Origin: Escherichia coli
GTDB taxonomy: Bacteria > Pseudomonadota > Gammaproteobacteria > Enterobacterales > Enterobacteriaceae
Assembly: GCF_016026235.1 (NCBI RefSeq)
Contig: NZ_CP065613.1
DNA: 64,000 nucleotides
Strand: one strand, 5' to 3'
Shown here: piece after piece, positions 33,221 to 36,907 of the stretch
How positions within the stretch are numbered: the first letter of the stretch is position 1
Layout of the letters: each line of letters begins with the position of its first letter
Program-made: the position numbers and the translations under genes
The notes under the pieces: model-generated
Told to the model about the DNA's origin: nothing
What the model saw: only the letters and a program-made list of their open reading frames with translations
Databases searched by the model: none

Positions 33221-35603
33221 ATGGCAGATAATCCAGACCCTTCATCGCTCCTGCCGGACGTGTTTTCACCGGCGACCCGCGACTGGTTTCTTCGCGCCTT
33301 TAAACAGCCGACCGCTGTCCAGTCGCAAACCTGGCATGTGGCGGCGCGAAGCGAACATGCGCTGGTGATTGCACCGACCGGCTCCGGGAAAACGCTGGCA
33401 GCATTTCTCTACGCCCTCGATCGGCTCTTCCGCGAAGGCGGCGAAGATACCCGCGAGGCGCATAAGCGTAAAACCTCACGCATCCTCTATATTTCACCGA
33501 TAAAAGCCCTGGGCACCGACGTTCAGCGCAACTTGCAGATCCCGTTGAAGGGTATTGCCGATGAACGGCGGCGGCGCGGCGAAACGGAAGTCAATCTTCG
33601 CGTAGGGATCCGTACTGGCGATACGCCTGCACAGGAACGCAGCAAACTCACCCGTAATCCGCCGGATATTCTGATCACCACACCCGAATCACTCTATCTG
33701 ATGCTGACCTCCCGCGCGCGCGAAACGCTACGCGGCGTCGAAACGGTAATTATTGATGAAGTCCACGCGGTAGCGGGCAGTAAACGTGGTGCGCATCTGG
33801 CGTTAAGTCTGGAGCGGCTCGATGCGCTGCTCCACACCTCAGCACAGCGAATTGGCCTTTCTGCCACTGTGCGCTCAGCCAGCGATGTGGCAGCATTTCT
33901 TGGTGGCGATCGCCCGGTTACGGTAGTCAACCCGCCCGCAATGCGCCATCCGCAGATACGAATTGTCGTACCGGTCGCCAATATGGATGATGTCTCATCG
34001 GTCGCCAGCGGCACCGGCGAAGACAGCCATGCCGGCCGGGAAGGCTCCATCTGGCCATATATTGAAACGGGTATCCTTGATGAAGTGTTGCGCCATCGCT
34101 CGACCATTGTCTTTACTAATTCACGCGGGCTGGCGGAAAAACTGACGGCACGATTAAATGAGCTTTACGCCGCACGCTTACAGCGTTCCCCGTCTATCGC
34201 CGTTGATGCGGCCCATTTCGAGTCGACCTCCGGCGCAACCTCTAACCGTGTACAAAGTAGCGACGTTTTTATTGCCCGCTCACACCACGGCTCCGTCTCT
34301 AAAGAACAACGAGCAATCACCGAACAGGCGCTGAAATCGGGTGAATTACGCTGCGTGGTCGCAACCTCCAGTCTTGAACTGGGGATTGATATGGGCGCGG
34401 TGGATCTAGTGATTCAGGTGGCAACGCCGCTTTCTGTTGCCAGTGGGTTACAACGCATTGGTCGCGCCGGACATCAGGTTGGCGGTGTATCTAAAGGGCT
34501 GTTTTTCCCCCGTACCCGGCGTGATTTAGTCGATTCCGCAGTCATTGTAGAGTGTATGTTCGCAGGCAGGCTGGAAAACCTGACACCACCGCATAATCCT
34601 CTCGACGTCCTTGCGCAGCAAACCGTTGCCGCCGCGGCGATGGATGCATTACAGGTAGACGAATGGTACTCCCGCGTACGCCGTGCCGCACCGTGGAAAG
34701 ATCTGCCAAGACGTGTTTTTGACGCCACGCTGGATATGCTTTCCGGGCGCTATCCCTCTGGCGATTTTTCTGCTTTTCGCCCCAAACTGGTCTGGAACAG
34801 GGAGACCGGGATATTGACCGCCCGACCTGGCGCTCAATTGTTGGCGGTTACCAGCGGCGGCACCATTCCGGATCGTGGCATGTATAGCGTGTTATTACCC
34901 GAAGGTGAAGAAAAGGCCGGTTCGCGGCGGGTGGGTGAACTGGATGAGGAGATGGTATATGAGTCGCGGGTGAACGACATTATCACTCTCGGCGCTACCT
35001 CATGGCGGATCCAGCAAATCACCCGCGATCAGGTGATTGTGACTCCTGCTCCGGGTCGTTCTGCCCGGCTCCCCTTCTGGCGTGGTGAAGGTAACGGACG
35101 TCCGGCTGAATTAGGCGAGATGATCGGCGATTTTCTTCATTTACTGGCGGATGGCGCGTTCTTTTCCGGGACTATTCCCCCGTGGCTGGCAGAAGAAAAT
35201 ACGAACGCCAATATTCAGGGGTTGATTGACGAGCAACGCAACGCGACGGGCATCGTTCCGGGGAGTCGCCATCTGGTCCTCGAACGGTGCCGTGATGAAA
35301 TTGGCGACTGGCGTATTATTTTGCACTCTCCCTATGGAAGACGGGTGCATGAACCCTGGGCGCTGGCGATTGCCGGGCGAATACATGCCCTATGGGGCGC
35401 TGACGCGTCTGTGGTCGCCAGTGATGACGGCATTGTTGCGCGCATTCCTGACACTGATGGTAAATTGCCCGACGCCGCGATTTTTTTGTTTGAACCAGAA
35501 AAGTTGCTGCAAATTGTCCGCGAGGCGGTAGGCAGCTCGGCACTTTTCGCCGCCCGTTTTCGCGAATGCGCCGCGCGGGCATTATTAATGCCGGGGCGCA
35601 CTC
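33221..35603 (+). pseudogene. lhr: lhr (large ATP-dependent helicase-related protein), 5' portion (codons 1-794) truncated by IS insertion
   Basis: Superfamily-2 helicase motifs (APTGSGKT Walker A, DEVH box); ORF continues without stop into the IS; joins in frame with 36908-39141 after removing the IS and one repeat copy (1538 codons in total). Confidence 0.9.
35594..35603. repeat. Target-site duplication (left copy) GGGCGCACTC
   Basis: Identical 10-mer recurs at 36898-36907 immediately flanking the IS (true duplication may be 9 bp with a 1-bp boundary ambiguity). Confidence 0.8.
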
Positions 35604-36897
35604 CTGAGGAATCCCCAGAAAACAAGACAGGCATAGTGAGATGTGATCTAATTGATTGTGCTAACAATTTCAAGGAGATCACCACTATGCCTGCACGTTC
35701 ATTATGCCAAAATTTCCTTAACAACATACTGGCCCCTTTGCATCTTTACCGTCAAAAATCACTGATTGACGCAACTAATGCTGTAATAAATGGCGCTTCC
35801 CTCACACTTACCAGTATCGGGCGTCATTTAACCGGTACGGCATCAGTTAAAAACAAAATAAAGCGGGTGGATCGACTGTTGGGGAATCGACATTTGCAAA
35901 ATGAGGTTTCCACCATTTTTCAGCGAATTACCCAAAAGATTACGCGGGGAATGTCTCGTGTTGTGATACTCATTGACTGGAGTGCTTATCATGCCTCTCG
36001 TTTTCAGCTTTTGCGGGCAAGCCTGGCATGTGACGGGCGTTCTTTACCGTTGATGAGTTGTGTCGTTCCATCATCACAGACAGCGAATGCAGATGTACAT
36101 GAGCGTTTTCTGGAATCGCTTGCTGAGTGCTTTTCCCCCGGGACTGATGTCATTGTTATTACAGATGCCGGTTTTCAGGGGCGATGGTTCCAACAGCTCC
36201 GCTCCCGTGGCTGGACCTATATTTGCCGGGTACTGGGCAATCATTATTACAATGTTGGTAATGGCTGGGAAAAGGTGTCGGACTCAGGCACAAAAGCATC
36301 AACGACAGCAATTTATTTAGGTGAAGGCCTGCTGGGTCGAGATAAAAATGCACAACATGAAGGGCATTTTTATCTTTATAAAAGTAAGCCTAAAGGTCGT
36401 TGATTTAAACGCTCGAAGGAAAGAGCAACCAGACCATCGGTGACGGCTAAAGCTCGTACTGCCGGGAAATCACCATGGTTTATTTTCACAAACAGTACTG
36501 AGTTCTCGCCAAAACAGGTAATGAAATTATACAGCCGTAGAATGCAAATTGAGCAAAATTTCAGGGATGAAAAAAATCCTCGCTGGGGATTTGGACTACG
36601 GTTTGGTGCCAGTCATTCATCCGGGCGGGTCACGGTATTGAGTCTGATCGCAACATTAGCCAGTATCATTATGTGGTTAAGCGGTTTCAGCCTGGAAAAC
36701 AAAGGGATACATCATAAATATCAGGCAAATACAGTGAAGCACAGGCGAGTCATCTCGTTATTAAAACTGGCGGAGAATGTGATTCGACATTCTCCACTCA
36801 TACTAAACACACTGTCACTTGACGCAGGGCTGAAAGTTCTACAGCAACGGTATACCAATATGATAATGGTTTACTAAATTTTCTGGGGATCCCTCAG
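35604..36897 (+). mobile_element. IS4-family, IS10-like insertion sequence (about 1294 bp) inserted in lhr
   Basis: 19-bp terminal inverted repeats CTGAGGAATCCCCAGAAAA (left) and CTGAGGGATCCCCAGAAAA (right, reverse complement); single transposase frame; flanking direct repeat; a second partial copy lies at 1-394. Confidence 0.9.
35687..36877 (+). CDS. IS10-like DDE transposase, frame interrupted by an in-frame TGA at 36401-36403 (segments 35687-36403 and 36404-36877)
   Basis: Blocks resembling IS10 transposase (KRVDRLLGNRHL, SDAGF, YSRRMQIEQNFRD, YQANTVKHR); both segments are in the same frame; the catalytic glutamate region lies after the TGA. Confidence 0.8.
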
Positions 36898-36907
36898 GGG
36901 CGCACTC
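36898..36907. repeat. Target-site duplication (right copy) GGGCGCACTC
   Basis: Direct repeat of 35594-35603. Confidence 0.8.

Follow-up and report, generated by a model that had tools for sequence, protein, structure and literature searches.

Why is lhr, a DNA-repair helicase gene, read in two pieces in one Escherichia coli strain? The stretch of DNA considered here, 64,000 nucleotides in all and called the window below, carries lhr on its plus strand as two fragments with 1.3 kb between them. The 5' fragment (33221 to 35603) comprises codons 1 to 794 and one base more and ends within the Lhr-Core helicase, and the 3' fragment (36908 to 39141) runs from the rest of codon 795 to codon 1538 and encodes the C-terminal uracil-DNA glycosylase domains. 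An earlier note, made from the DNA letters without database searches, had proposed that an insertion sequence (IS) of the IS4 family separates the two. The answer reached here is that ISEc60 inserted into lhr, presumably by cut-and-paste transposition, that it did so recently and privately in the source strain (assembly GCA_900449985.1), and that this copy is now nonsense mutated. The probability of this account is put at roughly 0.93.

An ISEc60 copy inside lhr

Direct reading and a repeat finder agree on an element of 1294 bp at 35604 to 36897, lying in the same orientation as lhr (plus strand). It is bounded by 19-bp terminal inverted repeats, CTGAGGAATCCCCAGAAAA on the left (35604 to 35622, plus strand) and CTGAGGGATCCCCAGAAAA on the right (36879 to 36897, minus strand), which match at 18 of 19 positions; by simple arithmetic, the chance of a 19-mer with one mismatch at most is about 2e-10. 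Outside these stands a perfect 10-bp duplication, GGGCGCACTC, once at 35594 to 35603, in lhr codons 792 to 795, and again at 36898 to 36907. The same arithmetic gives about 1e-6 for an exact 10-nucleotide repeat at a fixed position. In FDAARGOS_943, where the site is empty, the 10 bp are present in a single copy. The length of the element, its imperfect inverted repeats with their coordinates, and the flanking direct repeat had all been reported in the earlier note and were reproduced on re-inspection. The repeat finder itself returns an exact direct repeat of 12 nucleotides. Should the duplication then be read as 12 bp, with shorter IS ends? This reading was rejected. The two additional bases belong to the element, as its final G and initial C, and are explained by the conserved IS termini (CTGAGG...CCTCAG) and the target consensus, and it is also contradicted by the 10 bp found at 18 other ISEc60 sites.

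Which element is it? In a near-identity DNA search of 5426 complete E. coli genomes, matches to the element occur in 267 and a near-full copy (at least 80% of the element) occurs in 14. CFSAN029787, FDAARGOS_943, RMDEC332, RMDEC364, VL46, and a few plasmids carry full-length copies of 99.9% identity, all with the RefSeq annotation "IS4-like element ISEc60 family transposase." At least 12 RefSeq copies with the ISEc60 family annotation are identical to the window copy at 1293 of 1294 nucleotides; between the window copy and the copies of CFSAN029787, one base differs. By its sequence, then, the DNA at 35604 to 36897 is a copy of the catalogued ISEc60, the name being taken from the RefSeq annotation, and the search that the earlier note had called for supplies the name it could not give. 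MG1655 is not known to have ISEc60 in its IS inventory. The name is listed, at least, in the mobile-element table of a published MobileElementFinder-type report (PMC11325645).

The transposase frame (35687 to 36877, plus strand; 396 codons and a stop) is recognized by translation, by alignment with ISSfl1 and IS10A, and by the NCBIfam and Pfam profiles. The frame is broken at codon 239, and protein queries used a version with that codon restored to Arg. This restored protein of 396 amino acids (aa) is WP_001111632.1. It scores 360.5 bits against NCBIfam NF033591 (transpos_IS4_2; cutoff, 152), covering profile positions 1 to 339 of 340, and it matches Pfam PF01609 (DDE_Tnp_1) with an E value of 2.8e-20. 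The alignment shows as invariant the catalytic residues D97 (35975 to 35977), D160 (36164 to 36166), and E289 (36551 to 36553), all on the plus strand, as well as Y282, R285, E289, and K296 of the Y-2-R-3-E-6-K motif (36530 to 36574, plus strand). The element thus has the marks of the IS4 family: the profile match, the DDE/YREK signature, and inverted repeats with a duplication of fixed length. The earlier assignment to that family stands, as does the remark that the element is IS10-like yet different, with a protein identity of 36% and terminal 13 bp that are almost the same.

How does the window copy differ from its relatives? The sole difference from the reference copies is that T replaces A at 36401 (IS nucleotide 798). 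This substitution turns codon 239 from AGA, the Arg codon of all ISEc60 copies read from other genomes, into a premature TGA (36401 to 36403, plus strand). Since the stop precedes both the catalytic Glu289 and the YREK motif, no full-length transposase can come from the lhr copy by normal translation. With its in-frame stop, the window element is a defective ISEc60 copy and not a different element. On its own, it would make a 238-aa fragment or, by read-through from lhr, a 1060-aa Lhr-transposase chimera. It would become mobile again only with transposase from another copy or through rare read-through of the UGA.

Why this point in lhr? A perfect 10-bp duplication flanks ISEc60 at each of 18 other distinct sites, drawn from RefSeq and further assemblies, and these independent sites give a roughly symmetrical consensus, GGGnnnnCYC with cg on either side. 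The lhr site, in which GGGCGCACTC is preceded by ccg and followed by cgg, fits this consensus. By what holds for the family, the DDE transposase would have made cuts staggered by 10 bp at the preferred target, cgGGGnnnnCYCcg, and repair of the stagger would have produced the duplication on both sides of the element.

The ends and the leader also deserve a brief description. The left inverted repeat is without GATC, like the outside end of IS10, and the right one has a GATC (Dam) site, like the inside end; GATC also occurs at 35645 and 35677. In the leader, a hairpin is predicted at 35628 to 35693 (plus strand) that would pair the Shine-Dalgarno sequence AAGGAG (35672 to 35677) and the ATG (35687) with upstream sequence. 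The repeat finder detects an 11-nucleotide perfect inverted repeat in it, and the RNA fold of 35604 to 35720 has a free energy of -38 kcal/mol (z = -5.8), which none of 200 shuffled sequences reached. By analogy, it may act like the fold-back structure of IS10 that blocks translation of read-through transcripts. What about an antisense RNA? An Rfam scan of 35400 to 37100 at E values up to 1, with a release that may or may not include RNA-OUT, returned only a chance match to a long noncoding RNA and no RNA-OUT-like antisense RNA, though a diverged one would escape it. A scan of the element for sigma-70 promoters and terminators gave weak matches only, with no usable promoter near the left end.

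Recency of the insertion and the fate of lhr

When did the element arrive, and is it found at this site in other strains? A query spanning the insertion matches 4437 of the 5426 complete genomes, in each over less than 80% of its length. The lhr matches listed consist of both flanks only, 990 bp without interruption, as expected when the element and one repeat are missing (2294 - 1294 - 10). Across the IS junctions in lhr, no complete genome of this set matches. An intact lhr of 4617 nucleotides is annotated in both E2863 and FDAARGOS_943. The latter shares with the window an ISEc60 insertion adjacent to uidR (described below) and is 99.7 to 99.9% identical to it across the region, with lhr intact; the alignment of the two breaks exactly at 35604 and 36897. 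Other E. coli genomes, these two included, have the uninterrupted gene; the earlier note had advised looking for the empty site in closely related ones. By exact look-up, GCA_900449985.1 is the sole assembly on record with the 1060-aa fusion (contig UGFA01000002.1) or with a 728-aa fragment from the C-terminal part of lhr. The perfect duplication, together with an lhr that has no further damage besides the insertion, fits a recent event. As far as the data reach, then, comparison of the genomes makes the insertion look recent and private to the source strain. The earlier description of "a simple, probably recent insertion" is right about the insertion, but the copy itself is not intact; the in-frame stop in the transposase had been missed.

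What has become of lhr? Deletion of 35604 to 36907, that is, of the element and one repeat, fuses 33221 to 35603 with 36908 to 39141 in an open reading frame (ORF) of 4617 nucleotides, or 1538 codons and a stop, just as had been claimed. The restored gene is as long as the lhr annotated in strain E2863, from which 41 nucleotides and 14 amino acids differ, and the gene order nemA-gloA-rnt-lhr-grxD-mepH-sodB is the standard one for E. coli. In the interrupted gene, the lhr frame enters the transposase frame by chance, which creates a chimeric ORF of 1060 codons (33221 to 36403, plus strand) made of Lhr 1 to 794, 28 codons from the IS leader, and transposase 1 to 238. The source assembly annotates this ORF as a gene.

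Lhr consists of the Lhr-Core helicase (aa 1 to 897) and C-terminal uracil-DNA glycosylase domains (aa 898 to 1538) (PMC10953399). The break at codon 795 falls inside the helicase core and parts the helicase from the uracil-DNA glycosylase domains, and lhr is expected to be null or severely crippled in the source strain. The insertion thus probably removes the Lhr helicase/uracil-DNA glycosylase, whose loss in a K-12 delta-lhr strain brings mild sensitivity to oxidative stress (PMC10953399). Because grxD, the next gene downstream, lies on the opposite strand, no polar effect on it is expected. In annotation, the feature is best labeled ISEc60 (defective copy), and lhr of the source strain a pseudogene.

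Two sets of observations weigh against the account given so far, though neither speaks against the insertion as such. (i) The restored 1538-aa Lhr is nowhere on record in an exact look-up of a 15-billion-protein collection, although near relatives are included, and no exact preinsertion lhr allele was found in any relative. Either the allele is private, or lhr has changed in the source lineage. (ii) The nonsense allele recurs in five or more further copies of the source genome, which weakens the claim that the lhr copy is defective and immobile, and these copies include an insertion in motA that is absent from FDAARGOS_943. Either the allele spread after insertion, or elements that carry it still move.

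A nonsense allele in several copies

How did one nonsense allele come to be in so many copies? Exact look-up of the 238-aa truncated product finds it in five places besides lhr, all in the source assembly: in motA, beside a GTPase-like gene, at a rearranged site, in the nupC-pdeA interval, and in fryC. The idea of a private mutation that arose in the lhr copy after insertion is rejected by these five other loci. Each of the six readable copies of the source genome has T at IS nucleotide 798 (T798), and A is found there (A798) in about 28 distinct copies from 11 other assemblies, 4 of which belong to the source's own accession series. Look-ups of the intact 396-aa transposase led, among the matches listed, to two assemblies, neither of them the source. 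The A798 version of the lhr-transposase fusion, which would be 1218 aa long, has nothing on record. That T798 is real and rapidly swept most or all ISEc60 copies of one strain, including loci that are intact in a near-identical sister, is a tentative reading, at somewhat less than even odds.

By which route might this have happened? One possible but doubtful answer is gene conversion or homologous recombination among resident copies, with the lhr copy inserting intact and being converted later. It would account for the allele count just given and for three T798 copies whose site and orientation are shared by A798 copies of GCA_031665325.1 and whose flanks show no difference there over about 4 kb. 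At one of these shared sites, both genomes have the same nonmatching, rearranged flanks, and rearranged flanks indicate that recombination between copies does occur in the lineage. A pdeA junction is likewise common to a T798 copy of the source and an A798 copy of FDAARGOS_943. The difficulty is that conversion would have had to install a null allele three or four times, if not more, within a very short period, given the identical flanks in the sister genome, with no obvious selection. Moreover, no markers of conversion tracts were found, the copies being otherwise identical.

An unlikely alternative is that T798 marks a defective, nonautonomous subfamily that is mobilized in trans by intact copies of the same cell, the lhr and motA insertions being recent jumps and the A798 at shared loci of the relatives being polishing artifacts, in which short reads from a majority of intact copies overwrote the minority allele. 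Both of these insertions are T798 and both are absent from FDAARGOS_943, the uidR-adjacent copy at the left edge of the window may be intact, as look-up of the 238-aa product does not lead to it, and short-read polishing is known to homogenize repeats. Transposases of the IS10 type, however, act strongly in cis, as established for IS10, and no intact copy has been demonstrated in the source genome. The supposed artifacts also fit poorly with GCA_031665325.1, in which two copies retain a copy-specific polymorphism at nucleotide 122, as simple homogenization would not have allowed.

Could the error lie instead in the source assembly, which is PacBio only? All copies, that of lhr included, would then be intact. 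A consensus error would explain why the allele is confined to one assembly, and several assemblies of the same accession series do have broken ISEc60 transposase genes. Yet the change is an identical substitution, and not an indel, at six loci; four assemblies of that series read A; and over 12.3 kb the source assembly departs from a near relative's contig by a single mismatch, without indels. One of the six copies has a private single-nucleotide polymorphism of its own, so the copies were resolved individually. An assembly error is judged improbable.

Less credible again is a leaky stop codon, that is, rare read-through of the UGA (for example, with Trp at codon 239) that yields active transposase and leaves T798 elements autonomous but strongly downregulated. 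UGA is the leakiest stop codon of E. coli, new insertions with T798 exist, and another residue at position 239 may be tolerated, since that position varies (R in ISEc60, K in ISSfl1, and T in IS10A). Against this stand the lack of a recoding signal and an expected activity 100- to 1000-fold below that of an already very weakly expressed transposase. Nor does leakiness explain why loci shared with the sister genome have T in one and A in the other.

Whichever of the four applies, the conclusion that ISEc60 inserted into lhr is untouched. One last alternative denies that insertion, and it is scarcely credible. Nothing was found in its favor, the one weak point of the insertion being that its junctions occur in no other assembly; ancestral lhr sequence is refuted, and a chimeric misassembly is opposed, by a perfect 10-bp duplication of the usual length at a consensus-fitting site, by thousands of genomes that match the lhr flanks and none that matches the IS junctions, with lhr uninterrupted where listed, and by the presence of the element at many unrelated loci and on plasmids. 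With the insertion of ISEc60 accepted, only the multicopy nonsense allele could reward further work. If true, the sweep of T798 would make a natural example of an insertion sequence in rapid concerted evolution toward self-inactivation, reached either by gene conversion (possibly between excised IS DNA and resident copies) or by amplification of a nonautonomous subfamily. If the allele is real, it offers a dated, small-scale example of IS homogenization within one genome or of the spread of a defective copy.

Other copies, other features, and known relatives

A second ISEc60 copy, also missed in the earlier note, is cut by the left edge of the window. Its nucleotides 1 to 394 occupy positions 1 to 394 on the minus strand, downstream of uidR, with a target copy, GGGAATTCTC, at 395 to 404, and they are identical to the lhr copy over all 394 nucleotides. 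The two copies are inverted relative to each other and bracket 35.2 kb (uidR to lhr'), which could serve as a substrate for inversion or behave as a composite transposon. The uidR-adjacent insertion is common to FDAARGOS_943, RMDEC332, and RMDEC364. In GCA_031665585.1, the same 10-bp target on the uidR side holds the element in the orientation opposite to that in the window and the others, which argues for a preference strong enough for repeated hits at one site.

In FDAARGOS_943 (1107300 to 1114000), the uidR-adjacent ISEc60 is followed by ompG-ycjW-ycjX and not by uidA, whereas GCA_901482675.2 and GCA_031665585.1 keep uidA beside the element. The ompG-ycjW-ycjX genes beside ISEc60 point to a large IS-mediated uid/ycj rearrangement in FDAARGOS_943; the ycjW allele of that genome is not present in the source genome by exact look-up. 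The source and GCA_031665325.1 each have two ISEc60 copies about 7 kb apart, in the nupC-pdeA interval and in fryC. In FDAARGOS_943, one copy links fryC' directly to pdeA, a join consistent with deletion by recombination between two copies. The chromosome of CFSAN029787 (298182 to 301107) has two copies separated by 1632 bp, whose flanks are identical and which share the duplication GGGTTTCCCC. This pair sits within repeated ibs/sib toxin-antitoxin units, and it arose either when a repeat unit already carrying the IS was duplicated or through parallel insertions into repeated targets.

The T798 copy in motA lies in the flhDC-motAB region (GCA_900449985.1 contig UGFA01000005.1, 355184 to 358340), at a site that is empty in FDAARGOS_943 and the other E. 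coli genomes listed. With motA interrupted, the strain is predicted to be nonmotile. Such a disruption fits the IS-driven gene loss of enteroinvasive-type E. coli lineages that carry ISEc60.

Elsewhere in the window, at 12613 to 13226, rsxC carries a 96-bp (32-codon) repeat in 6.4 tandem copies of 92% identity, and the number of repeats varies by strain: RsxC has 772 aa in the window and 740 aa in FDAARGOS_943. The malX gene (3391 to 4983) has 530 codons, against 531 in FDAARGOS_943, where there is one extra Leu codon; no other indel separates the two strains over the first 13 kb. At Rfam gathering level, 42882 to 43272 and 51864 to 52145 hold the small RNA STnc550 (minus strand), two adjacent tRNA genes, and HPnc0260. 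The tRNA genes form an 81-bp tandem arrangement that the antisense family HPnc0260 overlaps; all of these are ordinary features unrelated to the lhr insertion.

How does the element compare with those already known? The closest differently named transposase is that of ISSfl1, an IS4-family element of Shigella flexneri, with 52% identity over the full length. The two are of similar size and have the same DDE and YREK residues, but ISSfl1 is a separate element, with no DNA-level match in the near-identity search.

IS10, with its relatives IS10A and ISVsa5, is more distant. It too has a single DDE transposase of about 400 aa, 35 to 36% identical to that of ISEc60 over 93% of the length. The IS10A ends, CTGAAGAATCCCCTGATGA on the left and CTGAAGGATCCCCTCATAA on the right, compare with CTGAGGAATCCCCAGAAAA and CTGAGGGATCCCCAGAAAA in being almost identical over the first 13 bp, CTGA-R-G-R-ATCCCC (CTGAAGAATCCCC and CTGAAGGATCCCC). 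The asymmetry of the ends is also shared, with AATCCCC proximal to the transposase and GATCCCC, with its Dam site, distal, as are the symmetrical preferred target and, by prediction, a leader able to fold over the ribosome-binding site. The differences are in length (1294 bp for ISEc60 versus about 1329 bp for IS10) and in the duplication, which is 10 bp at every ISEc60 site examined and 9 bp for IS10. IS10 likewise inserts at a preferred palindromic target of 9 bp, though with another consensus, NGCTNAGCN as opposed to GGGnnnnCYC. The protein identity of 36% and the 10-bp, not 9-bp, duplication rule out an IS10 isoform, and IS10 is absent among the full-length matches in the search of the E. 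coli genomes.

The nearest comparison is with ISEc60 itself. The window copy agrees with it in the 1294-bp length, the inverted repeats, the 396-codon frame, the 10-bp duplication, and the target consensus, and differs in the A-to-T change at nucleotide 798 and the resulting premature TGA at codon 239, seen in the source genome only. Its site in lhr is new: no insertion there occurs among the 5426 complete genomes. Overall, the locus, in one assembly of culture-collection type, is a case of a known insertion sequence at a new, unremarkable site in a nonessential gene.

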